DNA of 64,000 nucleotides from an uncultured bacterium (GCA_963813815.1 CAWFAD010000016.1:480001-544000), one strand, 5' to 3'; positions 8,162-53,502 are shown, numbered from the stretch's first letter. Notes: generated by a model not told the origin, from the sequence alone. Numbers and translations: made by a program.

Positions 8162-8233
8162 AGCGTTTCGCGCCGTTGCAATCATGCGGGGCTTCGTGTA
8201 TGCTCCGTCCGTCATGAGTCGTGGGGAGACGGC

Positions 8234-35594: not shown

Positions 35595-35927
35595 CTATTC
35601 GATAGTGGGAACCACCTTGGTGCAATCGAGCTTGATCAAAACAGGAGCGCAGATCTTCTTCGCCACGAAGAGGCCGTCAACTTCCTCGCCGAATACCTTC
35701 ACCGTCTGTCCGACCACGAGCATATCGAAAGTACCCAGCGCCTGATCGATCGATACGACGGTCTCGGCCGTCGTATAAACCGTCACGTCCGCGACGACAA
35801 ACGTCTTCGCGTTATAGTCGATCTGCGTGATTGCGCCATACAGATCGGGGGAATGCTCCGCAAACGTCGCTGCAGACGTGCAGAGGAGAATGGCGCCAAC
35901 CATCAGAGCCGAATATAGTTTGTGCAT
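35595..35927 (-). CDS. Small exported DUF5666-like protein
   Basis: GGAGG RBS, signal peptide, and G.IT.ID...F.V...V...T...L.VG.TVKV.G...F.A.KI pattern. Confidence 0.7.
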   Translation of the reverse strand: MHKLYSALMVGAILLCTSAATFAEHSPDLYGAITQIDYNAKTFVVADVTVYTTAETVVSIDQALGTFDMLVVGQTVKVFGEEVDGLFVAKKICAPVLIKLDCTKVVPTIE

Positions 35928-36090
35928 AATGTACACCTCCCTTCGATGCTGGTTGCGGGACGAACGATACCGCGCGAGATCACGTGCACGATACGCATTC
36001 CGGTCCCCGTGAAAACTCGGGATGCCAAAGAAACAAAGCGCCCCGCGAGAATTTATTGGTACCCTGCACACCCTTGTGGGTAACGGGACG

Positions 36091-36119
36091 ACAATACCGT
36101 AATCGAAAAAAGCTGTCAA
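36091..36119 (-). promoter_or_regulatory. sigma70 promoter
   Basis: Minus strand TTGACA-17 nt-TATTGT. Confidence 0.6.
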
Positions 36120-36251
36120 GCTGATTTTCATATTTATTATTTCTTATGAAACGTTATGCGAGCGCAATCGTGGGCGAATTTCGTTTCGCAACGAGGCGGC
36201 AGAATGCCGCGAGCTCCACGGGCCGGCGCTTCTGATATGTCGGAAATTATC

Positions 36252-36269
36252 CTGTGAAAATTAACACAG
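36252..36269. promoter_or_regulatory. CRP/Rex-like palindrome
   Basis: CTGTGAAAATTAACACAG in an AT-rich divergent intergenic region. Confidence 0.4.
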
Positions 36270-36437
36270 TGTAAAAACGTCAAATACTATTTATGGGATA
36301 AATAAACAGTTACGGTTGCCAATTAATAATTTCTATTTATAAGGCCTCCGGTGGGCGGATCGAGGCATTTCGGTACGTGTTATGCGGTTCTGTGAATATG
36401 CATGGCGGCAACAGGTCGGAAAAAGGCAAGGTGAAAC

Positions 36438-37751
36438 ATGAGCAACAGAACCTTGACATGTCGCCGGGGAGAGAGCGGAAGTGCTCTCATCGTAACGCTG
36501 CTCATCCTCTTCGCGGTTGCGGCGATCGGCATGACCCTCTCATCCGTATCGACCCTGGATTTGAAAATATCGGGGAACGAGCGGACGTCGAAACAGGCGC
36601 TCTTCGTCGCCGAGGCCGGTCTCAACGAGGCGATGCACAGGCTCATGATCCCGAGTCCCACGACCGCGACGGTCGGGGGTTGGACCGGAAACGTGGCCAT
36701 CGCTGATTCCGAGCCCTTGGATCCCAACTGGACGGTGAAGCTCTATCTCTCGAACCCGGGCTCCGTGCCGGCGGGGAGCGGATCCGTGCATACGACCGGA
36801 ACCGTGCAGAACCTCTCGTCCGGAGATGCTCTCGCCTACAGCGTCGGCAGCGGGAGCGAAGGCGTTCTCACCATACAGCACAAATGGATCGATCGCGACG
36901 GGGACGGCGCGAGGGATCAGAATGAGATAGTCCGGTACGATCGCATCCAAGCGCCTCCCGAAAACTTCGTTTCCGGAAGCCCGGTCGAGGTCGTCACGGT
37001 GGCCGGCAGGGCGGGAAGCGGCAGGGAAATGATACTGGCCGAGGTCTGCAAGGAAAGGGCCATCGTGAGAACGCTCGGAGCGCTCTACCTCGACAAGGCG
37101 GTGGAGCTCACCGGAAGCTCGTCTTTCTGCGGGTACGATCACGACTTCGCGATACCGGACGAAACGCCCGTCAGCGATCCAGGCACGGGGGGCGGGGGCG
37201 GGGGCGGGGGAGCCGGATTGGCTCTCTGCGACGACTACCATCTCTCCGCCGGAAGCCTTCCCGGAGTGACGACGACGGGCGACGAAATCCAAGTGAGGGG
37301 CTCGTCGGATGTCGTGGGGTATCCTTCGCCGCTCAACAAGTCTGCTTCCAATCCTTTCTACTCGCTCAGTCAGACGCTCGGGATGGACGACGCCCAGGTG
37401 CAGCGCATCCTGGCGGACGCCGACAACAGGACGATCGTGAATCCGCTGAGGGGCATCACCTATATCAACGGGGACGCCAATATCACGAGCAACCTGACGG
37501 GCGAGGGATTGCTCTACATCACGGGCGATCTTCATGCGGCGGGCGAGTTCATCTACAAGGGGCTCGTCTACGTCGAGGGCGACGTCAGGTTCACCGGATC
37601 GCCCTGGATTCTGGGGAGCATGATCGTGCGCGGCACGACCGATTTCAACTTCTCCTCGGGCAACGCCGCGATACTCTACAGCAGCGAAGCCCTCAAGAGA
37701 GCTCTCGACTCCGCGATGCCCGGCCTCGTGCTTTCGTGGAAGGACATTTAA
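36438..37751 (+). CDS. PilX-N-terminal (minor pilin-like) protein
   Basis: ESG-SALIVTLLIL class III-like signal, ALFVAEAGLNEA, and C-terminal G.L.ITGD/G.VYV.GD repeats ending SWKD. Confidence 0.82.
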   Translation: MSNRTLTCRRGESGSALIVTLLILFAVAAIGMTLSSVSTLDLKISGNERTSKQALFVAEAGLNEAMHRLMIPSPTTATVGGWTGNVAIADSEPLDPNWTVKLYLSNPGSVPAGSGSVHTTGTVQNLSSGDALAYSVGSGSEGVLTIQHKWIDRDGDGARDQNEIVRYDRIQAPPENFVSGSPVEVVTVAGRAGSGREMILAEVCKERAIVRTLGALYLDKAVELTGSSSFCGYDHDFAIPDETPVSDPGTGGGGGGGGAGLALCDDYHLSAGSLPGVTTTGDEIQVRGSSDVVGYPSPLNKSASNPFYSLSQTLGMDDAQVQRILADADNRTIVNPLRGITYINGDANITSNLTGEGLLYITGDLHAAGEFIYKGLVYVEGDVRFTGSPWILGSMIVRGTTDFNFSSGNAAILYSSEALKRALDSAMPGLVLSWKDI

Positions 37752-37870: not shown

Positions 37871-37899
37871 TTTACAAGCCGCGCCAATTGGTGTACAAT
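37871..37899 (+). promoter_or_regulatory. sigma70 promoter of the CHAT operon
   Basis: TTTACA-17 nt-TACAAT. Confidence 0.6.
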
Positions 37900-38020: not shown

Positions 38021-41000
38021 ATGCGGGTCGTTTCGATCAGGGCGACTGCGCGCGCGACAGTCGGCACGCGAGGCTGCTCCTCCGCCCGGCCGGCGGCCAT
38101 GGGTCGCGGGCGGAAGCGCTGCGGGCGGCGCTCTGCGCCCGCCGTCATCCTGCTCGGCTTCGCGGCCCTTCTTTGGCCCGCCGCCGCTTCGAGCGCGGAT
38201 CCGATCGCGGATCTCATCGCGTGCGCCGATTCTCTCGCGCGGGCCGGCGATGAGCGCGGATTCGCCGGGCTCGTGCGCGATCGCGGGATGCTCATCGGCG
38301 CCGCGGTCGGCCGGCTGCTCGACGCGGCCATCGAAGCCGGCGAGGCGGGAGACGGCGATTCGGAGCGGGAAACCGCGGCGCTCGCCGGGAGGCTCGCCGC
38401 GGTCCGTGCGGAGCGAGCCGGCGCCGGGACGCCGCTCGAGCTCGTGCTCGCACAGAATAAATGGACGGGCGAGCAACGGGCCCTTCGCGCGCGGGCGCGG
38501 GCGATCGAGGCGGAAGCGGTCGCGGCTCGTGACGCCGGAGAGCTCGATCTCGCCGCGACGAAATTCCGGGAAGCGTTGGAGCTCTACCGGCTCATCGACG
38601 ACCGCCGTTCGATCGCGGTGGCGTGGGGGAGTCTCGGCGTCGTTCACTGGTCCCGGGGCGATTGGGAGGCCGTTCGCGACTGCTACACGCGCGCCCTCGA
38701 GGCCCGGCGCGGCATCGAAGACCGGATGCTCGAGGGAAAGAGCCTGAACGGGCTCGGTTCCGTCCACTTCCAGATGGGAGATTTCGATACCGCCGTCGCG
38801 TTCTACCGGCGCGCGGCGGCGCTCCGCCGCGAAATCGGAGACGCCGGGGGGCTCGTGCAGACGCTCAATTACCTCGGCGCGACGCTCGATCGGATGGGGC
38901 GTCTCGGCGAAGCGGCCGAAACCCTCGAGGAAGCGCTCGGCGAGATCGGCGCCGCGGACGATCCGCTTCGCCGCGTCGAGTTCCTGAACACGCTCGGGAG
39001 CACCCTTTTCAAAATGGGCCGTCTGAAGGGCGCTGAAAGCGCGGCCCGCGAGGCGGTCGATCTCTGCGAGGCCGTCGGAGAAACGAATTTCGAGGCGAGC
39101 TGCAGGATCAATCTCGCCGATCTTCTCAATGCGACCGGGAGATATCGGGAGGGTATCGCCGAGCTCGATCGGGTGAGCCGTTCGCTCGAGCGGGTGACCG
39201 ACACCACGATCCCCTACTCTCTCTATCGAACCCGCGGGCTCCTCTATCTCGGCATGGGAGAGCTCGAACAGGCCCGAAACGATCTGGTGCGAAGCCTGGA
39301 GCTGGCCGAAGCCTCCGGCGCCGCGGGCTGCCGCATACAGGCGTTCATCAATCTCGCGAGCCTTTTCATGGAATTGCAGGCCGTGGAGGAAGGGCTCGAG
39401 TACGCGCAGCGAGCGTCGGATCTCGCGGCCGAGTCGCAGGATCTTCCCCTGCTGCGCGACGCGCTGCTCGTCACGGCCGCCCTCAACGAGCAGCGGGGGC
39501 GTTACGAGGATGCGCTCGCTCTCTATCGGCGCGCGGCCGATCTGGACGAGGAGCTCGGAAACAGGTGGGACGCGGTCTCGGACAGGATATCGATCTGCAA
39601 CTCGCTCGCGGCGCTCGGAAGGCGCGTGGAAGCCCGAAACGGATTCCGCGACGTCCAACCGGCGGCCGCCGAGCTCGAGACGCGGAGCTTCGACGGGGTC
39701 ATTCATTTCGGCATCGGCCATACCTACGAGACCGTCGATCGGGACAGCGCGGCATGGCACTACGAGCGGGCCCTCGAGTGCCTCGAGAAGGAAAGGGCCT
39801 CCATCGGCGGGAGCGAGCTCCGGAGCGGATTCCTCTCGGGCGACAAACGCCGGTTGTACGAGGAGGTCGGCATCTACTACGCGGCGGAGGCCCGCGCGAG
39901 CGGCGACGCGGCGTGGGCCGACAGGGCGTTTCGGACGATCGAGAGGGGCAAGGCGCGGGGCCTGCTCGATCTGCTCGGGGCGCGCGTCGCGGCCGATTGT
40001 CCGCCCGCGGAGGAAGCTCTCCTCGATTCGATCTATCGGCTCGATCCCGGCGCTCCCGGCTACCGCGAGCGGAAGCTGCTCGCCGAGAACCGGTACGCGG
40101 AGATGAGGGACAGGCGAATGGAAACCTCGCTCGGAGGCCTGCGGCCCGCGGCCGAGGTATCCTCGATTGCCGATGTCAGGGCTCAATTGACGGCGGGGAC
40201 TGTCGTATTTTCATACGCGCTCGGCGATACGGCGTCGCTCCTCTGGGTCATCGATTCGAACGGGTGCGATCTGCACCGGCTTCCGGGCCGTTCCGCTATC
40301 GACCTCGAGGTCATGCGGTTCAGGGATGCGATGGCGAGACCGGGAAAGCGCGACGACGTTCTCGTTTCCGCTTCGCGAAATCTCTACAGAACACTGGTCG
40401 AACCCGGCGCCGCGAGGCTCGAGGGCGCGAAATCGATCGTGTTCGCGCCGGACGGCTCGCTCTTCGAGCTGCCGTTTGAGGCGCTTCTCACCGGCGAGCC
40501 GGCCGAGGGGGCCGGTTGGCGGGGCATGCCGTTTCTCGCCGGGGCCTTCACGACGCTCTATGTCCCGTCGGGCACCATATTTTGCAGCCTGCGCTCCGCC
40601 GTTCGACCGCGGGATTACCGGAAGCAGCTGCTCGCCGTCGGCGATCCCGATCTTTCGGCCTTTCCCCAAGCCCCCGGGGGCGAAACGAGGCTACCCGAGC
40701 TGCCGTACTCGAAGGTCGAGATCGAATCGATCTGCGCCCTTCTCGATCGGGGGCAGGCGGATATGCTCTGCGGGAAAGAGGCGAGCGAAGGCCGGCTGAA
40801 GGCGTATCTGCGGGGGGGCTGCCCGCGCATCGTGCACCTGGCCGCTCACGGGCTCGTCGACCGCGTCGAGTCCGCCGCTTCGTGCGTCGCGCTCTGCCCC
40901 GACACGCTCGAGGGAGAAGACGGCTATCTTCATACGCTCGAAATACTCCAGATGCCGTTCGATGCGGCCCTCGTCGTGGTGAGCGCCTGCGAATCGGCCG

Positions 41001-41275
41001 TCGGGCGGGTGAGCAGGGGAGAAGGCGTCATCGGGCTGAGCCGGGCGTTCATCGGCGCCGGCTCCGGAGGCGTCGTGGCGAGTCTCTGGGCCGTGTCGGA
41101 TCGCTCGACGGCGGAGCTCATGAGAATATTCTATGAACACATGATGACCGAACGGAGGCCCGCGGCGAGCGCTCTCGCCGAGGCGAGGCTCGCGCTGCTG
41201 CGCTCGCCGGATTTTTCCCATCCGTTTCATTGGTCTCCCTTTGTGGCGGTCGGAACGGACAGGATGCCCTGGTAG
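38021..41275 (+). CDS. TPR-CHAT (caspase-like) protease with predicted signal peptide
   Basis: VILLGFAALLWPAAASSA leader, many TPRs, PDGSL.ELPFEAL, VHLAAHG (His), VVSACES (Cys), VVASLWAVSD and HPFHWSPF. Start may be 38099. Confidence 0.92.
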   Translation: MRVVSIRATARATVGTRGCSSARPAAMGRGRKRCGRRSAPAVILLGFAALLWPAAASSADPIADLIACADSLARAGDERGFAGLVRDRGMLIGAAVGRLLDAAIEAGEAGDGDSERETAALAGRLAAVRAERAGAGTPLELVLAQNKWTGEQRALRARARAIEAEAVAARDAGELDLAATKFREALELYRLIDDRRSIAVAWGSLGVVHWSRGDWEAVRDCYTRALEARRGIEDRMLEGKSLNGLGSVHFQMGDFDTAVAFYRRAAALRREIGDAGGLVQTLNYLGATLDRMGRLGEAAETLEEALGEIGAADDPLRRVEFLNTLGSTLFKMGRLKGAESAAREAVDLCEAVGETNFEASCRINLADLLNATGRYREGIAELDRVSRSLERVTDTTIPYSLYRTRGLLYLGMGELEQARNDLVRSLELAEASGAAGCRIQAFINLASLFMELQAVEEGLEYAQRASDLAAESQDLPLLRDALLVTAALNEQRGRYEDALALYRRAADLDEELGNRWDAVSDRISICNSLAALGRRVEARNGFRDVQPAAAELETRSFDGVIHFGIGHTYETVDRDSAAWHYERALECLEKERASIGGSELRSGFLSGDKRRLYEEVGIYYAAEARASGDAAWADRAFRTIERGKARGLLDLLGARVAADCPPAEEALLDSIYRLDPGAPGYRERKLLAENRYAEMRDRRMETSLGGLRPAAEVSSIADVRAQLTAGTVVFSYALGDTASLLWVIDSNGCDLHRLPGRSAIDLEVMRFRDAMARPGKRDDVLVSASRNLYRTLVEPGAARLEGAKSIVFAPDGSLFELPFEALLTGEPAEGAGWRGMPFLAGAFTTLYVPSGTIFCSLRSAVRPRDYRKQLLAVGDPDLSAFPQAPGGETRLPELPYSKVEIESICALLDRGQADMLCGKEASEGRLKAYLRGGCPRIVHLAAHGLVDRVESAASCVALCPDTLEGEDGYLHTLEILQMPFDAALVVVSACESAVGRVSRGEGVIGLSRAFIGAGSGGVVASLWAVSDRSTAELMRIFYEHMMTERRPAASALAEARLALLRSPDFSHPFHWSPFVAVGTDRMPW

Positions 41276-41368
41276 GCGGCGGCGCTCGACTGAGGACGAG
41301 GGGACTTTTCGTCGACATAGATGCTGCAGGTCGGATCCTACGTTGGCTGATTCGAGGAGGTGTCGCCA

Positions 41369-41905
41369 ATGCGAGGAATTTCTATCGGTCTCGCCGTGTG
41401 CCTGCTCGGGGCGGCGTTGCCGCGGCAGAACGCCGTCGCGACGCAGATCGAGCATCGGAGTCCGAGACAACTGGCGGAAGAATCGGCGCTCGTCGTTCGG
41501 GGAACGGTCGCCGGCGTGCGGTCTTTTTGGAACGCGCGCGGAACGAAAATCTTCACCGAAGCGACCGTCGAGGTCGATCAAACCTACCAAGGGCGCGACT
41601 CCCGGTCGATCCGTGTCGTCCAGATAGGAGGCGTCGTCGGCCATGTCCGCATGGCCGTCGCAGGCGCGCTCGCCTGGCGGCGGGGCGAGGAGGTGTTGCT
41701 CTTTCTCGAGCGATATGACGACGCTTCGTTCCAGGTGACCGGCTTCTCGCAGGGGAAGTACGCCATCGAGCGCGACGCGGCGACGGGACGGGCGTTCGTC
41801 CGCGGCGCCGGCGAGCTCGCCGGCGTTCCCGAAGGCCCGGCAGCGCGCCCGCTCGCCACGGTTTCGCTCGAAACCTTCATCGAACGCGCTCTCGGCCGAG
41901 AGTAG
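41369..41905 (+). CDS. Exported protein resembling a free-standing matrixin-associated pro-domain
   Basis: GAGGAGG RBS, signal peptide, and LA.ES.LVV.GTV...S.W...I.T...GG.VG...G....GEEVLLFL pattern. Confidence 0.65.
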   Translation: MRGISIGLAVCLLGAALPRQNAVATQIEHRSPRQLAEESALVVRGTVAGVRSFWNARGTKIFTEATVEVDQTYQGRDSRSIRVVQIGGVVGHVRMAVAGALAWRRGEEVLLFLERYDDASFQVTGFSQGKYAIERDAATGRAFVRGAGELAGVPEGPAARPLATVSLETFIERALGRE

Positions 41906-41920
41906 GAAAGGAGGAAGGCA

Positions 41921-44900
41921 ATGTTTCGCAAAAAAATCATCGCGATCGTAACCGGCGTCTTCCTCGCGCTCCTGCTCTCGATGGGCATCGAGGGGCAGAT
42001 CAGCGGGTTCATGGACGGGGACGGCGATGGGGTTCCCGATTCGACCGATCTCTGCCCGTTCGAGGACGCCTCGTATTTCGACCGGGACGGCGACGGATGT
42101 CCCGATCAGGTTCGCAGCGCCCGGCACGTCGAGTACTGGGACGCGGACGATATGCCCTTCGTCTACGCGATTCACGAAGGGGGAGCGCCGGGCATCGACG
42201 ACGGAAGCGATTTCGCCGCGCTGCAGGCGGGCATGAATGTATGGGCCGCCGTCCCCGGCACCGACTTTTCGCTGCTCTACGGCGGCACGACGGCGCAATC
42301 GGTCGCGGCCGCGCTCGACCGGGTGAACCTCGTCACCTTCGAGGACGACGAGTATTACTTCCCCTCCGCCGTACTGGCGGTCGGAATTTCGACCTCGTTC
42401 ACGGTCGATAGCCTCTACGACGGCACGTTCTATCGCGCCGGTCAGATTCTCGACGCGGATATGATATTCAATCCGTCGAAGACGTTCGTCACGGCGACCG
42501 CGGGCTCGGACGGGGCGGATATCGCGAGCATAGCGGCTCATGAAGCCGGGCATCTCTTCGGCATTTCGCACGCCGCGGTATGGACGTCGACGCTGTTCTT
42601 CGTGCTCGGTCCTGGGGGCGCCTCCGCGGATCTCGAGCGCGAGGACGAGCTGATGTTTCTCCGGTCCTATCCGGATTCCGCCACGCTCGCGACCTCGAGC
42701 CGGCTCGGCGGGACGGTCGCCGACGGCTTGTCGGGCGAGCCGATTCCCGGCGCGATCGTGTTCGCGGTGAGCGCGTCGACGGGAGATACGCTCGGCTGCG
42801 ACTATACCCTTCCGGACGGAAGCTATCTGTTTCTCGGCCTGCCGGACGGCGAATACTACGTGGACATATATCCTCTGGATGCCTCGGCGCCCATCGGGTA
42901 TATGCAGCCGGGCCACGTCAATTGGCTCGTCGCCTCAACCGCCGTGACGAGCTTCAAGCCGGAATCGTGGGACCTCGCCGAATCGTTCGACGACGATCCG
43001 TCCGCGCGGGACGCGGTGGCGGTGAGCGCCGGAGCGATGACGACGGCCGATCTCGTGACCGATATCGACGTGACGCCGCCGGCCGTGGTCGAGATCATCC
43101 CGGAGAGCGGAGCGGTGGGGGTATACGCGAGCGCGGTGGTGCTCGCCCGGTTCTCGGAGCCGATCGATCCGGAAACGATCGCCGGCAACTTTCGACTCGT
43201 GAACACGTCGTCTCTCGCGTCCGTGGGCGGAAGCGCCGGCGTTTTGAACGGAGATTCGCTGATCGCCTTCGCGCCGTCCGCCTCCCTCGCCTTCTCGACG
43301 CGATACGAGCTCACCATCGACGCGGGAATAGCGGATCGATTCGGCAACCCGCTCGGAACGCCGTTTGTCGCCTCCTTCACGACCGAAGCCGAGCCGCCGC
43401 TTCATGTCGCCGGCATCGTTCCCGCGTCGGCCTCCGCCGGGTCGGTTGTTATCTTCACGGGAACGGGGTTCGATCCGGATCCTGACGCCACAACGGTGCA
43501 TTTCGCCGGCGCCGACGCCGTGCCGGTCGACGCCTCGGCGACGGCGCTTGTCGTGTGGGTGCCGCCGGAAGCGGAAACGGGCGAGGTGACGATCGAAAAC
43601 TCGCTCGGCGCGAGCAACGGAATACTCTTCACGGTGCTGCCCTCATCCGAGGTCGCGAGGATCTATCAGGCGGGCGTCGTCGGAACGGACGACCTGCCGA
43701 GATCTCTCGCGGTGACGCCCGATGGAGCGTACGTCTATGTCGCCACTGCCGGTGGGTTGCTCGCGGCGGTCGCCGATCCCGGCAACCCCGATTTTCTCGC
43801 CGTGACGAAGATCGACGTGGCCGGCGGGCTGACCGATCTCGATGTAACGCCCGACGGAAAACGGGTCTACGGCGTTTGCCGGACGCTCGGTCTGATCCAC
43901 GTGTTCGACTCCGATCCGGGCGACGGCGCGCTGTTCAACACTCGTATAGCGACGCTTTCGACGGGCAAGGCGCCCCTCGGCGTGCTCATCGAGCCGACCG
44001 GAACGCGCGCGTTCGTTCCCGTCGAAGGCGGCGCCGTCCAGATCTGGGACGTATCGCGCTCCAGCGCGAGCGTGCACGAGCAAGTCGGCGTCATACCGCC
44101 GGCCGATCCCAACATCCTCGGTAAAATGGCGATCGATCCGGCGGGGGAACGATTGCTCGTTCCGACGACGACGGGCAGACTGCTCGCCTTCGACCTCGCT
44201 TCTCTCGCCCTCGTCGCCGAGGCTGGAATCGGATCCGAGCCCCGCGACGTGGCGATCGATCCGGCCGGGATGCGCGCCTATGTGAGCGACGAGGCCGGCA
44301 ACGTGTCCGTCATCTCCCTCGCCGGCGTCTCGTACGTGCAGGATATTCCGGTCGGCGGCTCGCTGCGCGGCGTCGACATAACGCCCGCGGGACAGTTTCT
44401 GTACGTCGCGAACCGGGAAACGAACGTCCTCGGCATCGTCGATCTCCGCGAAGACAGCCCGTCGTTCAGGCACGTCGTCGCGACGATTCCGCAGGGGATC
44501 AATCCGGTGGACGTCGCGCTCTCGCCGAACGGCCTGTACGCCTATTCGATCGCGGAGGAAGAGCGCATCCTCTCCGTGGCGGCGATCGGCGTGGGGCCCG
44601 CCTTCCGGAGCCTCTCCCGGCGGGCGGGACCGGTCGGGACGAAACTCGTGATCGCCGGCTCCGACTTCGAGGGCCCCTGCGCGATCGATTTCACCGGTTC
44701 GGGCGATACTCCGATCCGGGCCGTTCCCGAGCGTTCGTCGGGGACCGCGCTCGTCGTCGCGGTGCCCGAGGGAGGGCAGAGCGGGCCGGTCAGCGTCGTG
44801 GACGGAGAGGGAAAGCGATCGAACAGCCAGTACTTCGAGGCGCTCGGCCCCACTCCCGAACCGGGCCGGGTGCGCCTCATGTACGGCGCCGGAATCGATC

Positions 44901-47900
44901 CGGCGATCGACGCCGCTGCCGTGATGGCGATCGCTCCTTCGGGGGATCAGGCGATCATCGGAACGGAGAACGGCCAAATCCTCTGTGTCGATCTCGACCC
45001 TTCGAGCTCCACGTACAACCAGACGCTGCACGTTTCGACGATCGGATCGAAGGCCGTCACGGCTCTCGCCGTCGTTCCTGACGGGAGCGTCGCGTACGTG
45101 GCGCTCGAAAACGCCGGGACGGCGGCCGAGTTCTACGTCGTCGACGTGAACCGACATAGCGCCGCCTACGGCTCCGTCGTCGGCGCGGTGGACTTCAGCT
45201 CGTATCCGGCGATCGTGAGCGAGGAAGACAGCGCGGTTTCGGAAGACGAGTCCTGCGTCTACGCGGGCGAAATATCGATCAGCCCGGACGGGGCGATCTG
45301 TCTCATCCAGGACGCCTGCTCGGACCTGATCTATATGGTCGACATCCTTCCCGGTTCTCCGACGCAGAACGCGGTCGTCGATACGATCTGCATGCCGAGA
45401 GTGACCGAGATCGCGTTTCATCCGGGCGGCGAGTACGCGTACGTCACGTCGGCGTTTCTCCTCAGGGCGTATGTTCTCGACATGAATCCGGAGAGCAGCA
45501 CGTTCGGAGCAATCGTGAACAGCATCGAGCTGCCCTCTCCGCACGCGAATTCCTCGCTGATATGCCATCCGCTGGCGCTCGACTTCGCGCCGGACGGGTC
45601 CCGGTGTCTGGTGCTCGGCAAGGATTTCACCGAGAATCAACCGTACATCCACACGCTCGACACCACGGATCCCATGAATCCGGTGCAGATAGGCGTCGAT
45701 CTTTTCGGCGAGCCGTTTCCGATGTCCGGAACGAAGGCGATCCGGATATCGCCTCGCGGCGACCGGTGTGTCGTCGCTCTCAACGATATCGGGCTCATGA
45801 ACCTCGATATCTCGGAGCGCCCCTATGAGGTGCTCGATCATTTCGCCGATGATTTCTACGGGATCGAGGTCGAGACGGGATTCGCCCCGGACGGCGAAAA
45901 CGTCTTCGTCCTGAGCGCGGCCGCCGACTCGCTCATCACCTTCGACTTCGGGGACGCGGCGTCCGTGTCGCTCGCGTCGGGCGACGGCCAGACGGGCGTC
46001 GCCGGGGAAATTCTTCCCGCCGGGCTCAAGGTGCGGGTCATCGACGGAAGCGGCGAGCCGGCGGCCGGCATCGCCGTCACGTTCCTCGTGACGGAGGGTG
46101 GCGGTTCCTTCGTCGGCACGGGAACGCCGCTCGCGATCGCGGCCACCGATCCGGAGGGGATCGCGAACGTCGCCTGGCGACTCGGACCGAACCTCGGCGT
46201 CCAGCGCGTCAGCGCCTTCGGATACGGGCTCGCCGGCTCGCCGGTCGGCTTTTCCGCCGAGGCGGTCGAGAATCCGGCCGAGCTGCCACTCGAGCTCGCC
46301 GATCTCGCGCCCGCGACCGGAGCGGCGGAGGTGAGCGTGACGACGGCGATCAAGGGCACGTTCAGCCGCGCCGTCGATCCGGCGACGGTGGATGCGTCGG
46401 CGTTTTCCCTGCGGAAGGCGGACGACTCCTCGCCGGTCCCCGTTTCATACGGCTTCACGTCGGAGAATCGCGAGGTATCGCTGGCTCCGCTCGTCAATCT
46501 CGAGTTCGGCGCCGAATACGTGATCGAGATCTCCGGCGCGTTGCTGGATGCCGACGGCGGACCGGTGCAGAATCCGCTGGCGTCCAGCTTCACGACCTCG
46601 GCCTCCGTTCCGCCCGCGCTCGACGCCGTCAGTCCCCCCGGCGCCGTCGCGTACACGCCGGTCATACTGTCGGGCGAGGGATTCGACGCGGTGCCGTCGA
46701 ACAACACGGTGCTCTTCAACGACGTTCCTGCCACGCCCGTCGCGGGCGGGTTCGATTACCTCGAGGTGAAGGTGCCGGCCGGGATCGAAAGCGCGCTCGT
46801 CCGCGTGGTCGTCGGACCGGACACCTCGAACGCCGTTGCGTTCGCCGGGCTCGTGCCGGAATTCGAGCCCATCGACGAGGTGATCGCGACGGTGAACACC
46901 GGCTACGCCACGCAGGCGGTGGCCGTGACGTCCGACGGATCGAGGGCCTATGCCATATCGCCCGAATCGGATGTCGCCGTGCCGGTCGACCTCGTCAATC
47001 TCGCATCGCTCGCCCCCATTTCGGTCGGAGACCACCCCGTCTCGATCGCGATGCATCCGAGGAGCACGTTCGCGTTCGTCGCGAACTTCGGCTCCGGGAC
47101 GGTTTCGGAGATCGACGTCGATCCGGCATCGCCGTACTATCACTCGATCCGCGCGAATCTGCCGGTCGAGGCGAATCCGATCGATCTCGCGGTGAGTCCC
47201 GAGGGCGATCGGCTCTACGTCGTCAACGCCGGGTCGGCTTCGATCAGCATCATCGACACCGACGAGGAAAGCGAGACGTATCACGAGGCGCTGGCGACCG
47301 TCGAGACCGAATCCGCCGTGAACTGCGTGGCGGTCGCGCCCGACGGCTCGAGGATCTATATCGGCACCGATTCCGGGTTCATTGTCCTCGATCCGATGAG
47401 CTATGCGGTCCTCGCGAGGATCAGCACCGGCTCCGCGACGAAGACGGTGACGATCGTGCCAGATGGAACGCTCATGTTCCTGCTCACGGACGGCGGCGAG
47501 GTGTTCGTCGTCGACATCGAGCCGGGCAGCGCCACGGAAAACGCCGTCGTGGCCCACATCGGCGTGGGTTCGACGGTCAGCTCGGTGACCATCAAGGCCG
47601 ACGGAACGCTGCTCTACCTGATTCAGGAGGAGTCCGACGTCGTGCTGGTGGTTCTCATCGAGCTCCTCGACGCGGTCGCCGTGCTCGATCCGGGCGAAGA
47701 GCTGCCGCCGAAAACGGTGCGTGTCAGCGTGGTCGATTCGCTGTGGGCCGGCGAGGATCCGACGGCGCTCGCGTTCGATCCGACCGGTTCCGGACTGGCC
47801 TACGTTACGAACGCCGGACCGCGGACGATCACGGTGCTCAACGTCTCGGAGGTGCCGTACATCACCTGTACGGTGGCGGCGCCTCCCGACACCTTCGTCT

Positions 47901-48790
47901 CGGTGCCTCCGGAGGAGACGTACATCTTTTTCGATTTCGGCATCACCAACACCTCGCCGAACTACGATTCGGAGTTCGATTACCAGCTCTCCACGGACGG
48001 CCCCGGCTTTCTCGCCTGGGGAGAATCCGATGGTAGAAACGTTTTGTTCGGAACGACCCCGCTGCTCGCTCCCGGCGAATCGCACGTCGTGACGGGCGCG
48101 GCGCTCGTCATTCCGGATGGCGCCGTCTTCGGGTCCGCGGAGCAAATCGTCGCGTTCTCCGTCTCGGCGCACGAGTATCCCGAGCGGCGGCAATCGGCGC
48201 AGACCGTCTTTTCCCTGGTGCAGCAAGTGGTCGCCGTCCTCGTGACGAAATTCGAGGCGGTCGCCGTCGAGGGCTGCGTCAGGCTCTCGTGGGATATCTC
48301 GGCGGACGGCGACGTCGAGGGATTCAACGTCTACCGCTCGGAGGGAGATGCGAAGGCGCTCGTCAACGAGGGAGGATTGCTGCCCCCGGACGCGAGAACC
48401 TGCGCCGATTTCGAGATCGCGGGGGGAAGGAGCTACGCCTACACGCTCGGGATCGTCACGAGCGACGGGAACGAGATGACGTCCCTCGAGGCCTTCGTTC
48501 AAACGAAGAGGTGTTCGCTCGCCCTGAGGCAGAATTTCCCGAATCCGTTCAATCCCGCGACGAGGATCTCGTTCTCGCTGCCCGAGCGGACGCACGTGAA
48601 AATCCATATCTATAATTCCGGAGGCGAGCTGATCGCGACTCTCGCCGACGGGGTTCTCGAAGAGGGTCTTCGCGAAGTGGAGTGGAACGGGAGGGACGAA
48701 CGGGGGAACGTCGTCGCTTCCGGCGTCTACTTCTGCCGGCTCGTGGCCGGCAAGCAGACCCTGACCCGCAAGATGGTGCTGCTGAGGTAG
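41921..48790 (+). CDS. Giant secreted matrixin-like metalloprotease with Ig/TIG domains, three YVTN-like beta-propellers and C-terminal FlgD-Ig sorting domain
   Basis: Signal peptide; DGDGDGVPD..D.CP Ca-binding repeats; HEAGHLFGISH; FSEPIDP/FSRAVDP (Big_5); IPT/TIG units; PDG..YV repeats; LRQNFPNPFNP..SGVYF.RL. Confidence 0.9.
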   Translation: MFRKKIIAIVTGVFLALLLSMGIEGQISGFMDGDGDGVPDSTDLCPFEDASYFDRDGDGCPDQVRSARHVEYWDADDMPFVYAIHEGGAPGIDDGSDFAALQAGMNVWAAVPGTDFSLLYGGTTAQSVAAALDRVNLVTFEDDEYYFPSAVLAVGISTSFTVDSLYDGTFYRAGQILDADMIFNPSKTFVTATAGSDGADIASIAAHEAGHLFGISHAAVWTSTLFFVLGPGGASADLEREDELMFLRSYPDSATLATSSRLGGTVADGLSGEPIPGAIVFAVSASTGDTLGCDYTLPDGSYLFLGLPDGEYYVDIYPLDASAPIGYMQPGHVNWLVASTAVTSFKPESWDLAESFDDDPSARDAVAVSAGAMTTADLVTDIDVTPPAVVEIIPESGAVGVYASAVVLARFSEPIDPETIAGNFRLVNTSSLASVGGSAGVLNGDSLIAFAPSASLAFSTRYELTIDAGIADRFGNPLGTPFVASFTTEAEPPLHVAGIVPASASAGSVVIFTGTGFDPDPDATTVHFAGADAVPVDASATALVVWVPPEAETGEVTIENSLGASNGILFTVLPSSEVARIYQAGVVGTDDLPRSLAVTPDGAYVYVATAGGLLAAVADPGNPDFLAVTKIDVAGGLTDLDVTPDGKRVYGVCRTLGLIHVFDSDPGDGALFNTRIATLSTGKAPLGVLIEPTGTRAFVPVEGGAVQIWDVSRSSASVHEQVGVIPPADPNILGKMAIDPAGERLLVPTTTGRLLAFDLASLALVAEAGIGSEPRDVAIDPAGMRAYVSDEAGNVSVISLAGVSYVQDIPVGGSLRGVDITPAGQFLYVANRETNVLGIVDLREDSPSFRHVVATIPQGINPVDVALSPNGLYAYSIAEEERILSVAAIGVGPAFRSLSRRAGPVGTKLVIAGSDFEGPCAIDFTGSGDTPIRAVPERSSGTALVVAVPEGGQSGPVSVVDGEGKRSNSQYFEALGPTPEPGRVRLMYGAGIDPAIDAAAVMAIAPSGDQAIIGTENGQILCVDLDPSSSTYNQTLHVSTIGSKAVTALAVVPDGSVAYVALENAGTAAEFYVVDVNRHSAAYGSVVGAVDFSSYPAIVSEEDSAVSEDESCVYAGEISISPDGAICLIQDACSDLIYMVDILPGSPTQNAVVDTICMPRVTEIAFHPGGEYAYVTSAFLLRAYVLDMNPESSTFGAIVNSIELPSPHANSSLICHPLALDFAPDGSRCLVLGKDFTENQPYIHTLDTTDPMNPVQIGVDLFGEPFPMSGTKAIRISPRGDRCVVALNDIGLMNLDISERPYEVLDHFADDFYGIEVETGFAPDGENVFVLSAAADSLITFDFGDAASVSLASGDGQTGVAGEILPAGLKVRVIDGSGEPAAGIAVTFLVTEGGGSFVGTGTPLAIAATDPEGIANVAWRLGPNLGVQRVSAFGYGLAGSPVGFSAEAVENPAELPLELADLAPATGAAEVSVTTAIKGTFSRAVDPATVDASAFSLRKADDSSPVPVSYGFTSENREVSLAPLVNLEFGAEYVIEISGALLDADGGPVQNPLASSFTTSASVPPALDAVSPPGAVAYTPVILSGEGFDAVPSNNTVLFNDVPATPVAGGFDYLEVKVPAGIESALVRVVVGPDTSNAVAFAGLVPEFEPIDEVIATVNTGYATQAVAVTSDGSRAYAISPESDVAVPVDLVNLASLAPISVGDHPVSIAMHPRSTFAFVANFGSGTVSEIDVDPASPYYHSIRANLPVEANPIDLAVSPEGDRLYVVNAGSASISIIDTDEESETYHEALATVETESAVNCVAVAPDGSRIYIGTDSGFIVLDPMSYAVLARISTGSATKTVTIVPDGTLMFLLTDGGEVFVVDIEPGSATENAVVAHIGVGSTVSSVTIKADGTLLYLIQEESDVVLVVLIELLDAVAVLDPGEELPPKTVRVSVVDSLWAGEDPTALAFDPTGSGLAYVTNAGPRTITVLNVSEVPYITCTVAAPPDTFVSVPPEETYIFFDFGITNTSPNYDSEFDYQLSTDGPGFLAWGESDGRNVLFGTTPLLAPGESHVVTGAALVIPDGAVFGSAEQIVAFSVSAHEYPERRQSAQTVFSLVQQVVAVLVTKFEAVAVEGCVRLSWDISADGDVEGFNVYRSEGDAKALVNEGGLLPPDARTCADFEIAGGRSYAYTLGIVTSDGNEMTSLEAFVQTKRCSLALRQNFPNPFNPATRISFSLPERTHVKIHIYNSGGELIATLADGVLEEGLREVEWNGRDERGNVVASGVYFCRLVAGKQTLTRKMVLLR

Positions 48791-48807
48791 CTCGCGCGGA
48801 GGGGGGA

Positions 48808-50445
48808 TCAGCGGCCGTCGATGCGCTCGAGGGCCGCGGCGGCGGCGCCGCGGTCCTCGAGCGAGCCCAGCTTGGCGAGGGCGAGCCAGTGCCGGCGGGC
48901 CTCCGGGATCATCCCGGATCCCTCGTACAGCTCCGCGAGGCAGCGATGGAGCTCGGCGTCATTCGGAAGTATCTCGAGCGCCCGCTCGAGGAACGGCAGC
49001 GCCAGATCTTCCCGGTGAATCATCCGCTCGGCCCGGCCCAAGTGTTTGAGGATATGCCCTCGCGCGCCGGGATCCGAGTTCTTTTCTCGTTCCGCCCGGA
49101 GGAGCCCGAGCTCGAGCACGTTCAGCGCTTCCTCGGGGCGGCCCGCGTCGAGCAGGAGCGCGCCGAGATTGTTGTAACCTTCGACGAGAAGCGAATCCGA
49201 CTCGATTGCGGCGCGGAAATACCTCTCGGCTCCGGCGACGTCTCGCATGGCCCACCGCACGCCGGCGAGATTGAAGAGGGCGATCGTGTAGCGATCGTTG
49301 ACGGAAAGCGCCCGTAGCAGGAGCGAATCCGCTTCCCGCCAGTTGCCCCCGCTGATGGCGAGCGCCGCCAGGTTGTTCCAGGGCACCTCCCAGCGCTGGT
49401 CGGCGATGATCGCGTTGCGGTATTCGACGTTGGCGAGATCGATCTTGCCCAGCTTCTCGAATCCTTGTCCGAGCTCGTTGTGATGTTTCGCGAGCGCGCG
49501 ATCGCCGTCGGCGGCCCTTCGCTCGAAAACGAGGGTGAGCGCCCCGAGCACGATCGCGGCGGAGGCGGCCGGGATGAGAATGCGCATGAGGCTGCGTTTG
49601 AGCCCCGATCCTTCCCCGGACAGGGGCGGCCGTTCCCGCTGCAGGATGGTTTCCAGTTCTCGCTTGAACTCCGCGGCGCCGGCGAACCTTTCGTTCGGAT
49701 TCTTCTTCAAGGCTCGATCGATCGCCGCGTCGAGACCCGCGGGAAAACCGCCGATCGTCTCGCGGTCGATCGGAAGATACGGTTCGTTCGTGATCGAATA
49801 CATGACCGCCATCGGGTGTTCCCCGGGGAACGGGTGGCGGCCCGTCAGCATTTCGTAGAGAACGATGCCGAGAGAAAAGAGGTCGCTTCGAGCGTCGATC
49901 CTGTTGCCTATCGTTTGCTCGGGCGACATGTAGGATATGGTGCCGATGGTGCCCCCCTCGACGGTGATCGTCTCGCTCGTCGTCACCCGCACGATACCGA
50001 AGTCCATCAGCTTCGGGATGCCTTCGTCGGTGACGATGACGTTCTCCGGCTTGAGGTCCCGGTGTATGAGGCCGGCGCCGTGGAGCTTTTCCAGCGCGTC
50101 GAGCAGCTCGACGGCATGCTCGATCGTCCGCCGCCAGGGAACGGGCCCCTCGGAGATCATCTGCCGAACGGTCTTCCCCTTGAGGAGCTCCATGGCGAGG
50201 TAGAGGAGCCCTTTGTCCTCGCCCGCCGCATAGACCGTGACGATATTGCGATGATTGATGCTGGAGCAGGCTCGCGCTTCGCGGAGGAAACGCTCCTTGC
50301 CGCGCGCGCCGAGCTGCGCGGGGTGGATGACTTTGACGGCGAGGGTTCGGTCGAGAGTTTCGTCCCGCGCGAGGAAAACGGTCCCCATGCCACCGCTGCC
50401 GATGGTATCGAGGATTTCGTAGCTTGCGATGCGATCGAGCTCCAT
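48808..50445 (-). CDS. Hanks-type Ser/Thr kinase, single TM, extracytoplasmic TPRs
   Basis: GSGGMG, AVK, HRDLKPEN, DFG, YMSPEQ; TM ILIPAASAAIVLGALTLVF; TPRs after the TM. Confidence 0.95.
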   Translation of the reverse strand: MELDRIASYEILDTIGSGGMGTVFLARDETLDRTLAVKVIHPAQLGARGKERFLREARACSSINHRNIVTVYAAGEDKGLLYLAMELLKGKTVRQMISEGPVPWRRTIEHAVELLDALEKLHGAGLIHRDLKPENVIVTDEGIPKLMDFGIVRVTTSETITVEGGTIGTISYMSPEQTIGNRIDARSDLFSLGIVLYEMLTGRHPFPGEHPMAVMYSITNEPYLPIDRETIGGFPAGLDAAIDRALKKNPNERFAGAAEFKRELETILQRERPPLSGEGSGLKRSLMRILIPAASAAIVLGALTLVFERRAADGDRALAKHHNELGQGFEKLGKIDLANVEYRNAIIADQRWEVPWNNLAALAISGGNWREADSLLLRALSVNDRYTIALFNLAGVRWAMRDVAGAERYFRAAIESDSLLVEGYNNLGALLLDAGRPEEALNVLELGLLRAEREKNSDPGARGHILKHLGRAERMIHREDLALPFLERALEILPNDAELHRCLAELYEGSGMIPEARRHWLALAKLGSLEDRGAAAAALERIDGR

Positions 50446-50470
50446 GAAGCGCTCTCGGCGGCTTTGATCC

Positions 50471-51424
50471 TCACCGCTTTTCGAGCAGGTGCTTGTACTC
50501 GCCGAGCGCTTCGACCGGCCGTCCGCCTTCGGCGTACAGATGGGCGAGGATCGAGTGCAGGGTGGCGTTGTCCGGATCTTTTTCGAGCGCCGTCCTCGTC
50601 TCCGCGATCGCCTCGTTCACGCATCCCGCGTCGAAGAAAAGGCTCGCCCGCACGAAATGCAGGGCGAGCACGCTCGGTATCTCCTCTTTCTCGAGGGATT
50701 TCAGGGCGAGCGCGAGATCTCGCTCCTCCTCGGGCGAAAGGATCTCGAAGAAAGCGGCCTGGCTACGGATGGGCGGAAAGACGAGGGGATCGGCCGTTTC
50801 GACCGCCCACGAATACACCGTTCCGGGGGCGAGCGGCGGCGCTTCCTCGGGATACCGCAGACTCGTGCCGGCCGGCACCTTCTGCTCCCACTGAACCGCC
50901 TCTTCGTTGTACAGCACGACACGGAGCTTCTTGGTCGAATCGGAGCAGCTCCATTGGAAGAGCGGGCGCATCGTTCGTATCCTCGTATCGCAGGGGGCAA
51001 TAGGCCTCAGATCGCGGCATTTCTCGCCCGATCTCAGTCCCACCATTGAGCTCGATCCCTTGTAGTTCTTCAGCTTGATGAACTCCTGCACCGACTCGAA
51101 GCTCCGGGACTCCTTCTCCGGTCGCGCCGACCGGCCCGCCTGCGGCTGCGCTTTCACCTGCATCCGGCTTCTCGAGCCGATGATGATCCATGTTCCGTTT
51201 TCGAAGTGTATCTCGGCCTCGGAGTCCTCTCCCGTCTGCACCTCGTCGCCCTCGTAGAGCGGCAGGCCGAAGGAGCCGGGTTGGGACTGTCCTCCGCTTC
51301 TCGAGACGTCCGCGGCGCCTCTGCACGACAGGAGAATGGCGACCGGCTTCTCGGCGGCAACCGGAGGACTCATGATGAAGGTCGCGGCAAAAATCGCTAA
51401 GCACGCGCCGAAACGAATCCTCAT
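50471..51424 (-). CDS. Exported FecR-like + DUF928-like + TPR protein
   Basis: Signal peptide; LYEGDEVQTG.DS.AEI.F.NGT (FecR-like); P.FQW, YP...PPL.PG..YSW.V, LF..AG...EAI (DUF928-like). Confidence 0.7.
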   Translation of the reverse strand: MRIRFGACLAIFAATFIMSPPVAAEKPVAILLSCRGAADVSRSGGQSQPGSFGLPLYEGDEVQTGEDSEAEIHFENGTWIIIGSRSRMQVKAQPQAGRSARPEKESRSFESVQEFIKLKNYKGSSSMVGLRSGEKCRDLRPIAPCDTRIRTMRPLFQWSCSDSTKKLRVVLYNEEAVQWEQKVPAGTSLRYPEEAPPLAPGTVYSWAVETADPLVFPPIRSQAAFFEILSPEEERDLALALKSLEKEEIPSVLALHFVRASLFFDAGCVNEAIAETRTALEKDPDNATLHSILAHLYAEGGRPVEALGEYKHLLEKR

Positions 51425-51508: not shown

Positions 51509-51666
51509 GCATAAAAGCTCGCCGTCCGGACCGGACGGCGAGCCGTCGCCCGGCGCGGGAGCGAGCGCGGTCTCCCGCCGATTCTGGGGGCGAGGCGGGG
51601 CCGGTTGTGATACAATAAAAAACCCTCATTTTCACAGCGACGGAGGGAAAGGAAGGTGGCAGCGAC

Positions 51667-53502
51667 ATGACGGGGAAAACGCGTTTTCGACTCGCGGCCT
51701 CGATGCTGATGCTGGCCGCGTGCGCTTCTCTCGTCGCGGCCTCGGTCCGCGCCGAAAAGAGCGAGGACGAAGAGCTCGCCGAAATCAGGAAGATGATCGC
51801 GGACAGGGGTTATCACTGGACCGCGGGGAAGACGTCGGTTTCGGGGCTCTCCGATGAGGAGAAGATGAAGCTCTGCGGCTACGTTCAGCCTCCCGATTGG
51901 ATGCTCGCCGGCATCCCGGTGTTCTACGCTTCCGACAGCGCCGTGACCGACACGCGCTTCGATTGGCGCGATTACGGCTTCGTGACTCCCGCGAAGAATC
52001 AGAAATCGTGCGGCTCGTGCTGGGCCTTCGCGGCCGTCGGGGAGCTCGAGAGCCATATGCTGATCTACGACGGTCGATACGAGGATCTCTCGGAGCAGCA
52101 GGTGCTCTCGTGCATCACGACGGGCGGCGACTGCGGCGGCGGATGGATGTACGAGGCGTACAACGTTTTCATGGCTCAGGGATCGGTCACCGAGGCGTGC
52201 ATGCCGTACATGGGCGTCGATACGATACCCTGCACGGAGGATCAGTGCACGCATCTCGCCTTCGCGGCGAGCTACGTCACGGTGCCGAACAGCGTGAACG
52301 ACATCAAGCAAGCCGTCCTGAGAGGCCCCGTCTCGACCACGTTTCAGGCGCTCGGAGATTTCTTCTACTACACGGGCGGATGCTATGAGAACGATTCCGG
52401 CATCAGCCGGATCAACCATGCCGTGATCATCGTCGGCTGGGACGACGAGATGTGCGAGGGGCAAGGCGCCTGGATCTGCAAGAACAGCTGGGGCGAGAGC
52501 TGGGGCGAGAACGGATTTTTCAACATCAGATACGGCGATCTCGCGATAGGGTCAAACTCGATGCAGATCATATACAGCCCGAGCCCCGTGCTGGTTCGCC
52601 TCGACGCTCCGAACCGGGGGGAGAGCTGGGTGGCCGGCGGCGAGTATCAGGTGAGCTGGACGATCGGGCGCGGAACGCCCGATTCGATCGGCATCTACCT
52701 CAGCACGGACGGCGGCGCGTCGTACGGCGAGACCGTGGCGTCGGGACTCGAAAATACCGGAACCTTCAGATGGAAGGTCCCCGTCGCGCCGGCGGCGCAG
52801 GCGAAGCTTCTCGTCAGGGCCTACGCGTCCGGCGCCATCGGAGGCATGGATACGAGCGACAGCGTCTTTTCGATCGTGGAAGATCTCGAAGGGCCGGCCG
52901 TGACGGTCACGCACCCGAACGGCGGCGAACAGTACCATCCGGGCGACACCCTCGATATCGAGTGGATGGCGTCGGACAACGCGTCGGTCGAATCGATCGA
53001 CATCTACTGCTCGGCGAACGGCGGGATCGACTATGTCGCCGTGGCGGCGGGCGAGGAAAACGATTCGATATTCAAGTGGGTCGTTCCCTCCTCGTTCGGC
53101 GATTCCTGTCTCGTGAAGGTCGTGGCCCGCGATCCGAGCTCGCTCACGGGCGAGGATGCGAGCGATGCGCCGTTTTACATCGTCGAGGCGAGCACCGGCG
53201 TCGGGGACATCGCCCCTCCGCGCTTCACGAACCGCCTCGAGCAGAACTACCCGAACCCGTTCAACGGAACGACGACGATCGGGTACTCCGTCGCCGGGCG
53301 TTCGCAGGTGCTCGTGCGGATTTACGACACGGCCGGGAAGCTCGTGAAGGTCGTCGAGCGAGCGACGAGGGAGCCGGGAACGTACGTCGCCATATGGAGG
53401 GGCGTGGATGAGGCGGGACGCGGCGTCGCTTCGGGCGTGTACTTCTGCTCCATCACGGCCGGCGATTTTATGGATTCGAGAAAGATCGTCTACTTGAGAT
53501 AG
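51667..53502 (+). CDS. Papain-family (C1A) cysteine protease with FlgD-Ig sorting domain
   Basis: FDWR, NQKSCGSCWAF, NHAV.IVGW, KNSWG..WGENG, two PN.GE domains and LEQNYPNPFN. Confidence 0.93.
   Translation: MTGKTRFRLAASMLMLAACASLVAASVRAEKSEDEELAEIRKMIADRGYHWTAGKTSVSGLSDEEKMKLCGYVQPPDWMLAGIPVFYASDSAVTDTRFDWRDYGFVTPAKNQKSCGSCWAFAAVGELESHMLIYDGRYEDLSEQQVLSCITTGGDCGGGWMYEAYNVFMAQGSVTEACMPYMGVDTIPCTEDQCTHLAFAASYVTVPNSVNDIKQAVLRGPVSTTFQALGDFFYYTGGCYENDSGISRINHAVIIVGWDDEMCEGQGAWICKNSWGESWGENGFFNIRYGDLAIGSNSMQIIYSPSPVLVRLDAPNRGESWVAGGEYQVSWTIGRGTPDSIGIYLSTDGGASYGETVASGLENTGTFRWKVPVAPAAQAKLLVRAYASGAIGGMDTSDSVFSIVEDLEGPAVTVTHPNGGEQYHPGDTLDIEWMASDNASVESIDIYCSANGGIDYVAVAAGEENDSIFKWVVPSSFGDSCLVKVVARDPSSLTGEDASDAPFYIVEASTGVGDIAPPRFTNRLEQNYPNPFNGTTTIGYSVAGRSQVLVRIYDTAGKLVKVVERATREPGTYVAIWRGVDEAGRGVASGVYFCSITAGDFMDSRKIVYLR

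Follow-up and report, generated by a model that had tools for sequence, protein, structure and literature searches.

Do a caspase-fold CHAT protease, a giant secreted protein and a receptor kinase that are encoded side by side in an uncultured bacterium belong to one system, and which of the links between them is the closest? The question is raised by a 64,000-nucleotide stretch of DNA (the window; G000:C16:480001-544000) from a 2.5-Mb metagenome-assembled genome (MAG), 91% complete, of an uncultured member of the Krumholzibacteria, whose proteins have relatives labelled Candidatus Krumholzibacteria or Latescibacterota. Five long open reading frames (ORFs), all coding-type by their third-position GC content (GC3 0.77-0.83), are arranged here as the initial annotation had described, in two convergent units whose stop codons lie 17 nt apart (Table 1). 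Unit 1, on the plus strand, runs from the CHAT gene through a small gene, orf181, to the gene of a very large protein (the giant), with gaps of 84 and 15 nt; unit 2, on the minus strand, runs from orf317 to a Ser/Thr kinase gene across a gap of 25 nt. We consider it probable that the five genes form one functional module. Its core is an operon of CHAT, a TIMP-like protein (orf181) and a giant with a metzincin domain, usually accompanied by a FecR/MtxA/DUF928-like protein (orf317) and a tetratricopeptide repeat (TPR) receptor kinase. Domain content, catalytic motifs, conservation and genetic linkage support this directly, and the tightest link in the set, that of CHAT with orf181 and the giant, is one that the initial annotation had missed.

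All five genes are present in 7 of the 40 near relatives (G004, G005, G010, G012, G016, G024, and G036), three fragmentary MAGs hold a partial set (G001, G008, and G011), and the other 30 hold none of the five. We then compared 60 genomes drawn evenly from the class (G000 excluded), with orthologue thresholds of E ≤ 1e-75 for CHAT and E ≤ 1e-48 for orf181. CHAT and orf181 orthologues were found in the same 16 of the 60, and never one without the other; orf317 is present in 13 of these 16, plus one further genome. The positive genomes are scattered over four families (f1, f6, f8, and f9), each of which also has negative members. The expectation that the genes would be found together elsewhere is borne out across four families of the class, as neighbors as well as in co-occurrence. 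CHAT directly adjoins orf181 in 11 of the 16 genomes, eight times on the same strand and three times divergently; otherwise it lies in the same cluster (G044, G024), beside the orf317-kinase pair (G070), or elsewhere (G012, G036).

The second unit behaves as a pair. In 23 of 27 loci, each from a contig of its own, no more than 230 nt separate orf317 from the kinase gene that comes after it, and in two the kinase is 1.7 or 5.4 kb away; for the remaining two, the kinase is missing in one short contig, and its position is untellable at one contig end. Of the 15 loci that leave 6 kb or more of sequence for it, 12 have the giant within 10 kb of the orf317-kinase pair. In G059, from another family, the whole layout of the window is found in mirror image, including the convergent sensor pair, while L059, L060, G024, G005, and G070 hold the same genes together in other orders, with CHAT directly beside orf317 or the kinase, and no orf181 between, in L059, L060, G005, and G070. 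Such varied orders, keeping the same genes together, argue for selection on linkage and are a stronger argument for it than the counts.

The CHAT domain (PF12770) spans residues 785-1078 of the first protein (E 2.5e-62; 211.4 bits against a cut-off of 24), and Pfam finds several TPR families as well. The motifs HLAAHG (939-944) and SACES (Cys990) are kept in all six aligned orthologues, in agreement with the intact His-Cys dyad of the initial annotation; the HLAAHG histidine and Cys990 are presumably that catalytic dyad, an assignment that follows the motifs of the CHAT family and not a solved relative. In a PDB sequence search the whole protein matched TPR proteins only, and the CHAT domain alone gave no match. 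The start is more likely Met27, at 38099, than the first ATG. Export signals were judged throughout by hydropathy and by the conservation, among orthologues, of the n/h-region and of an AxA-type site. On this basis the N-termini of the window CHAT and four orthologues are signal-peptide-like, as had been proposed: basic residues lead into a hydrophobic run, and an AxA-type site precedes a conserved (Q)DP. This would make CHAT a soluble exported protein. Hydropathy and Pfam found no other hydrophobic segment or transmembrane anchor and no cytoplasmic anti-sigma domain in the window CHAT. At L036 (G012:C4; 9502-12864 and 17583-18881) the CHAT orthologue is broken between two frames, through either a frameshift or a fault of assembly; near it lie a PrsW-family protease and a kinase fragment fused to an nSTAND1 NTPase.

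The next gene, orf181, had been called a pro-domain in the initial annotation. Its start is probably at 41369 and not at the called 41360, and it has no match in Pfam (even at E ≤ 10) or NCBIfam. The AF2 model (predicted local distance difference test, pLDDT, 81; predicted TM-score, pTM, 0.71) has TIMP-1/-2 and agrin NtA as its top Foldseek matches (E 2e-4 to 1e-3). A second structure search, independent of Foldseek, placed N-TIMP-3 at the top (Z 10.7, root-mean-square deviation 2.8 over 114 of 121 residues), and its top 11 rows are all NTR modules; by language-model features, too, the nearest named Atlas clusters carry TIMP, NtA, and NTR. Judged from the predicted model, orf181 is thus a TIMP/NTR-fold protein and a putative partner of the metzincin domain, in place of a pro-domain. 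A conserved n/h-region and AxA-type site are found in orf181 and its orthologues, with no recognizable lipobox. Thr25 (numbered from the 41369 start) is invariant; it stands just behind the predicted signal-peptidase site and, in the structural alignment, opposite TIMP residue 1, and an invariant mature N-terminus in this position fits insertion into a metzincin active site.

The link to metzincins extends beyond the window. In a profile search with the orf181 family, 14,079 cluster representatives passed E ≤ 0.001 and 5,699 passed E ≤ 1e-10, mostly of 170-250 residues and without Pfam model or name, which makes the family a candidate for a new family definition. Of a class-wide sample of 30 orf181-family loci, examined with only 1.5 kb of flank each, 14 carry HExxHxxGxxH on the same strand at a distance of about 650 nt downstream; as a control, 641,698 nt of other loci hold 13 occurrences of this motif, all of them in giant orthologues. 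For three motif-less loci a larger stretch was read: the giant starts directly after orf181, with a long N-terminal extension and the motif further in (open frames of 3573, 3334, and 4406 residues). Among 18 listed orf181-family matches that were scanned against Pfam, one, P0274 (707 residues), joins two orf181-like stretches to a Peptidase_M10 domain (E 1.5e-8), and the other 17 have no relevant family. Genetic linkage and this one fusion protein make orf181 a candidate inhibitor of a metzincin. G083 (L103, G083:C1) has two CHAT copies and three orf181 copies.

The giant has a signal-peptide-like start, Asp-rich Ca-type repeats, a metzincin domain, CarboxypepD_reg, Big_5, and TIG domains, two beta-propellers and an FlgD_ig/type IX secretion system (T9SS) C-terminal sorting domain (Pfam and NCBIfam). 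Its zinc motif, HEAGHLFGISH, is at residue 207, and the His-Glu-His-His residues of this motif are kept in all aligned orthologues, with Gly replaced by Ala in two. The protease part has karilysin as its best, weak match in a PDB sequence search (E 0.005). By its sequence the giant is predicted to be a T9SS cargo: the sorting domain TIGR04183 scores 27.9 bits against a cut-off of 23, a PorU orthologue is encoded in the genome (543.5 bits; cut-off 420), and similar C-terminal domains recur in about 30 other ORFs of the genome. A search for SprA_N gave no match in the genome and none in the controls either, and is uninformative. At L110 (G088:C8), two giant genes stand in tandem after CHAT-orf181, and one giant of G083 (L103) has a duplicated metzincin module, the first copy of which reads HAAGH, with the Glu lost.

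In the receptor kinase, the Pkinase domain covers residues 9-254 (E 2.1e-47, 162 bits) and the TPRs residues 357-518 (Pfam). The catalytic motifs are intact, as the initial annotation had it, with the Gly loop GSGGMGTV16, HRDLKPEN128, DFG148, and SPE174, and Lys38 is invariant in a 20-sequence alignment. Hydropathy indicates one hydrophobic segment (about 285-310), and since the TPRs are C-terminal to it, they should face the periplasm. At position 11094 of L047 the kinase orthologue gives one match to query residues 1-62 and another, in a different frame, to 63-545, as a frameshift or sequencing error might produce.

Its partner, orf317, had been called FecR/DUF928. This holds across the family of 27 members, where, at E ≤ 1, DUF928 (PF06051) is matched by 22 (best 5e-8), FecR (PF04773) by 21, DUF7354 by 22, and TPRs by all 27. 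It does not hold for the window protein alone, which stays below cut-off for FecR (E 0.038; 14.9 bits against 24) and DUF928 (E 0.092; 12.9 against 26), as it does for DUF7354 (E 0.0018; 18.5 against 31.4). The AF2 model (pLDDT 78) has a beta domain (29-89), a low-confidence linker (94-130), an immunoglobulin (Ig)-like sandwich (140-228) and TPR helices (231-316). Foldseek finds the MtxA C-terminal domain as its top match (4z29, E 3e-8, TMt 0.68), and the nearest named Atlas cluster is DUF7354 with MtxA_IG-like (score 0.90). The N-terminal domain resembles a retention or anchoring module of the LapA type (NF033682, E 1e-4; 5ix9, TMt 0.78 over 65 columns). Residues 109-132, where the linker has a pLDDT below 50, form a motif that hardly varies, F..V..F.KLK..G.S....LRS, with LRS itself invariant; it is a candidate docking or cleavage site. 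A search for the DUF928 family in the window's own genome found no match, and the controls also gave none over cut-off. The contig scan of genomes with a narrow orf317 peptide pattern returned Krumholzibacteriia/Latescibacteria MAGs only, and says nothing of other phyla.

How might these parts work together? The explanation that fits best, and to which we give about an even chance, is an extracytoplasmic protease-inhibitor-effector operon coupled to a receptor-kinase sensor pair. The giant would be a surface or extracellular protein secreted by the T9SS, its N-terminal metzincin domain held latent in the periplasm by the TIMP fold of orf181, probably via the conserved mature N-terminus of the latter (Thr-Gln-Ile), and the exported TPR-CHAT protease would be the processing or activating enzyme of unit 1, cutting the inhibitor, the giant or the sensor's partner. 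Orf317 would act in the periplasm as a co-receptor together with the TPR ectodomain of the kinase, a single-pass Hanks enzyme that would convey, by phosphorylation, how the secreted system stands to the cytoplasm. We infer that the proteins are exported, that orf181 inhibits, which substrate CHAT cuts, that orf317 binds the kinase and which way the signal runs, and the specific mechanism (latency by orf181, processing by CHAT, and sensing by the kinase pair) ranges, depending on the step, from distinctly tentative to an even chance at best.

In its most far-reaching form, which we think improbable, this would be a bacterial extracytoplasmic cascade with the parts list of animal matrix remodeling: CHAT would remove the TIMP-fold inhibitor and so activate the matrixin-like giant, and the receptor kinase, with its MtxA/DUF928-like co-receptor, would read the state and feed back. 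If that were true, the orf181 family would make up a very large class, without a name so far, of TIMP-like proteins with which bacteria inhibit metzincins; these counterparts of TIMP, widespread in bacteria and encoded beside metzincins, would bear on the periplasmic silencing of secreted metalloproteases in Gram-negatives. We know of no function for exported CHAT proteases or DUF928, nor for the ligands of TPR or CHASE2 receptor ectodomains, and the module names candidate partners for all three.

Several observations weigh against the coupled protease and sensor system. The signal peptides and the topology are predictions from heuristics only. Peptidase_M10 is borderline in the giant: the cut-off of 24 bits is narrowly missed by the whole protein (23.8) and passed by residues 1-326 taken by themselves (27.3). 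At the Met-turn, where the aligned orthologues read STM or ATM, the window giant has STLFF, with Leu for Met; the family thus keeps the Met-turn and the window copy alone has Leu. Of the "giant matrixin" of the initial annotation, the zinc motif is accordingly present, the family match marginal, and the Met-turn lost in this copy. Orf181 has no conserved Cys in 32 aligned sequences, so that the Cys1 and disulfides that are the hallmark of TIMPs are lacking, and is unmatched by the Pfam TIMP and NTR families. The related genomes are not independent, and the co-occurrence counts overstate the number of independent events. Finally, the linkage itself is incomplete: CHAT, orf181, and the giant occur without an orf317 match in G072, G075, and G077, G064 has orf317 but no CHAT orthologue, the CHAT gene is away from the other module genes in G004, G012, and G036, and the units are on different contigs or far apart in G004, G012, G024, and G036. 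The two units can, on this evidence, work apart.

The last point is at the heart of one alternative, in which the units are two independent, often neighboring systems: a secreted-protease operon, and an unrelated receptor kinase that regulates something else together with its FecR-like partner. Besides the separated units and the genomes that hold only one of them, the many other Ser/Thr kinases encoded fit this reading (G000 alone has 7 kinase matches at E ≤ 1e-60). Against it, both units are held by 13 of the 16 CHAT-positive genomes, the giant is near the orf317-kinase pair in most loci with room for it, CHAT lies directly beside orf317 or the kinase at four loci, and the gene orders vary while the same genes stay together; on balance we regard two unrelated systems as unlikely. 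A different question is whether orf181 inhibits at all. As a periplasmic chaperone or trans-acting pro-domain it would fold the metzincin domain or escort the giant to the T9SS, and the linkage to metzincins and the fusion protein apply equally to such a role. The missing Cys1 and disulfides suit it too, NTR modules also serve as enhancers (PCPE), and the Listeria protein Tim is cleaved by its metzincin and not shown to inhibit it (PMC8235301). The invariant Thr25, aligned with TIMP residue 1, fits active-site insertion instead, and we hold a chaperone or pro-domain role to be rather doubtful.

Least probable of all, in our estimate, is a route in which the exported CHAT is a site-1-type protease acting on a membrane regulator, either an anti-sigma factor or the kinase ectodomain, and controls the regulon of an extracytoplasmic function (ECF) sigma factor, with the giant merely a member of that regulon. 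The model for it is DdvA of Myxococcus xanthus, a periplasmic TPR-CHAT unit within an anti-sigma factor according to the available part of its description (PMC11506125). At locus L037 (G024:C20), an ECF sigma gene (7700-8242, minus strand) and the CHAT orthologue are divergent, and immediately after CHAT come a giant of 2766 residues or more and then orf181; a PrsW-family membrane protease adjoins the CHAT orthologue in G012 and G005. However, the window CHAT has neither the anti-sigma domain nor the anchor, the scan of window ORFs yielded no sigma factor, the ECF sigma homologue recurs, weakly, in only 3 other loci, and the tightest partner of CHAT is orf181. We rejected both the ECF sigma factor and PrsW as a regular sixth component, each being found at few CHAT loci only.

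The module is built from known kinds of parts, and we found no printed description of it: literature searches (supplements excluded) returned no paper that joins CHAT with DUF928, FecR, T9SS, or Krumholzibacteria, nor one that describes the gene set. To our knowledge, DdvA is the only characterized periplasmic TPR-CHAT. It shares with the window CHAT a caspase-fold TPR-CHAT unit with a His-Cys dyad outside the cytoplasm and a proposed role in sensing or transducing envelope signals by proteolysis. DdvA, however, is anchored in the membrane, carries a zinc anti-sigma domain at its cytoplasmic N-terminus and has an ECF sigma factor as its partner (PMC11506125), and the window CHAT has none of these. 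The latter is instead predicted to be soluble and exported, and is linked to a TIMP-like gene, a T9SS giant and a kinase.

For unit 1, a close likeness is to the pairs of potempins and KLIKK peptidases of Tannerella forsythia (including karilysin, which resembles a matrix metalloproteinase), where a small inhibitor gene is immediately upstream of a T9SS peptidase gene (PMC9890683); among PDB sequences, moreover, it is karilysin that the protease part of the giant matches best. Unlike the potempins, which are lipoproteins of the outer membrane with 98-132 residues, orf181 has an AxA-type signal peptide by prediction and a predicted TIMP/NTR fold, and the cargo here is a multidomain protein of 2289 residues with a CHAT protease and a kinase attached. 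In Listeria, the metzincin Mtz is encoded beside Tim, a protein with a predicted TIMP-like fold, and its authors, in the part of the article available, found no earlier record of TIMP-like bacterial proteins (PMC8235301). Tim, as described there, is a Gram-positive lipoprotein of phage origin, cleaved by Mtz, in the context of a CI/Cro switch, whereas the context here is CHAT and a kinase (PMC8235301).

The Lap logic (LapA/LapG/LapD), that is, regulated periplasmic cysteine proteolysis of a giant surface protein, is comparable in outline, but the protease here is CHAT and not LapG, and secretion is by the T9SS and not type I. For unit 2, the "BiofilmReg" operons of Burkholderiales, with a FecR-domain protein and a CHASE2 histidine kinase, are similar in that the gene of an exported FecR-type protein immediately precedes that of a receptor kinase in the membrane (PMC5192318). 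Where those systems have CHASE2 or LapD, the receptor of the module is a Hanks kinase whose ectodomain would consist of TPRs. That DUF928 accompanies CHAT and CHASE2 in cyanobacteria, which the initial annotation took as established, is in print with regard to CHASE2, as one Nostoc cluster of CHASE2, DUF928, and WD40, the sole printed case that we found in the available text (PMC5587647); the link to CHAT was unconfirmed. Two cyanobacterial plasmid CHAT loci (Anabaena and Nostoc) lie among caspase, S8, and other genes, with no DUF928 or kinase annotation, and on a Caballeronia plasmid a CHAT-TPR gene adjoins TpsB and TpsA genes. Overall, the proposal of an extracytoplasmic module of CHAT, a DUF928-like protein and a receptor kinase beside a large secreted protein stands, on signal-like N-termini, family matches and synteny; proteolysis or binding among its members, and a kinase standing in for CHASE2, are hypotheses.

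Table 1. Features of the module and its surroundings; positions are counted from the first nucleotide of the window.
Feature	Position	Strand	Basis or remark
Predicted exported TPR-CHAT caspase-fold protease	38021..41275	+	1084 aa from first ATG; Pfam
orf181, predicted exported TIMP/NTR-fold protein, candidate inhibitor/latency factor of the giant's metzincin domain	41360..41905	+	Structure searches on AF2 model
Giant, predicted T9SS cargo with metzincin domain, 2289 aa	41921..48790	+	Pfam, NCBIfam
Single-pass (predicted) Hanks Ser/Thr kinase, C-terminal TPR domain	48808..50445	-	Pfam, hydropathy
orf317, predicted exported FecR/DUF7354-like beta domain, conserved linker motif, MtxA/DUF928-like Ig domain, and TPR	50471..51424	-	Family scan, AF2 model
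Sigma-70-like promoter match upstream of CHAT gene	37871..37899	+	TTTACA-17-TACAAT, 10/12 positions, consensus match only
Papain-family protease, Ig domains, T9SS sorting domain	51667-53502	+	Peptidase_C1 E 1.8e-53; divergent from orf317
DUF5666 protein (-) and PilX_N/GspK-like pseudopilin-type protein (+)	35595-37751		Both just upstream of CHAT gene

Sigma-70-like sites number 4 in the region against 1.5 expected. We rejected the flanking C1 peptidase, PilX_N, and DUF5666 genes as members of the module: PilX_N, DUF5666, and the C1 catalytic domain are unmatched in related loci, where the cross-matches of the C1 peptidase are to its C-terminal Ig and sorting domains only. Because its catalytic domain was not found at those loci, the C1 protease is a local neighbor, the second protease here with a T9SS sorting domain. 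A strong hairpin of 13 pairs, 10 of them G-C (51516-51544, minus strand), lies some 90 nt before the start of orf317 on the same strand; it is followed by a T-rich run, and may be a terminator of upstream transcription or a structure of the 5' leader.

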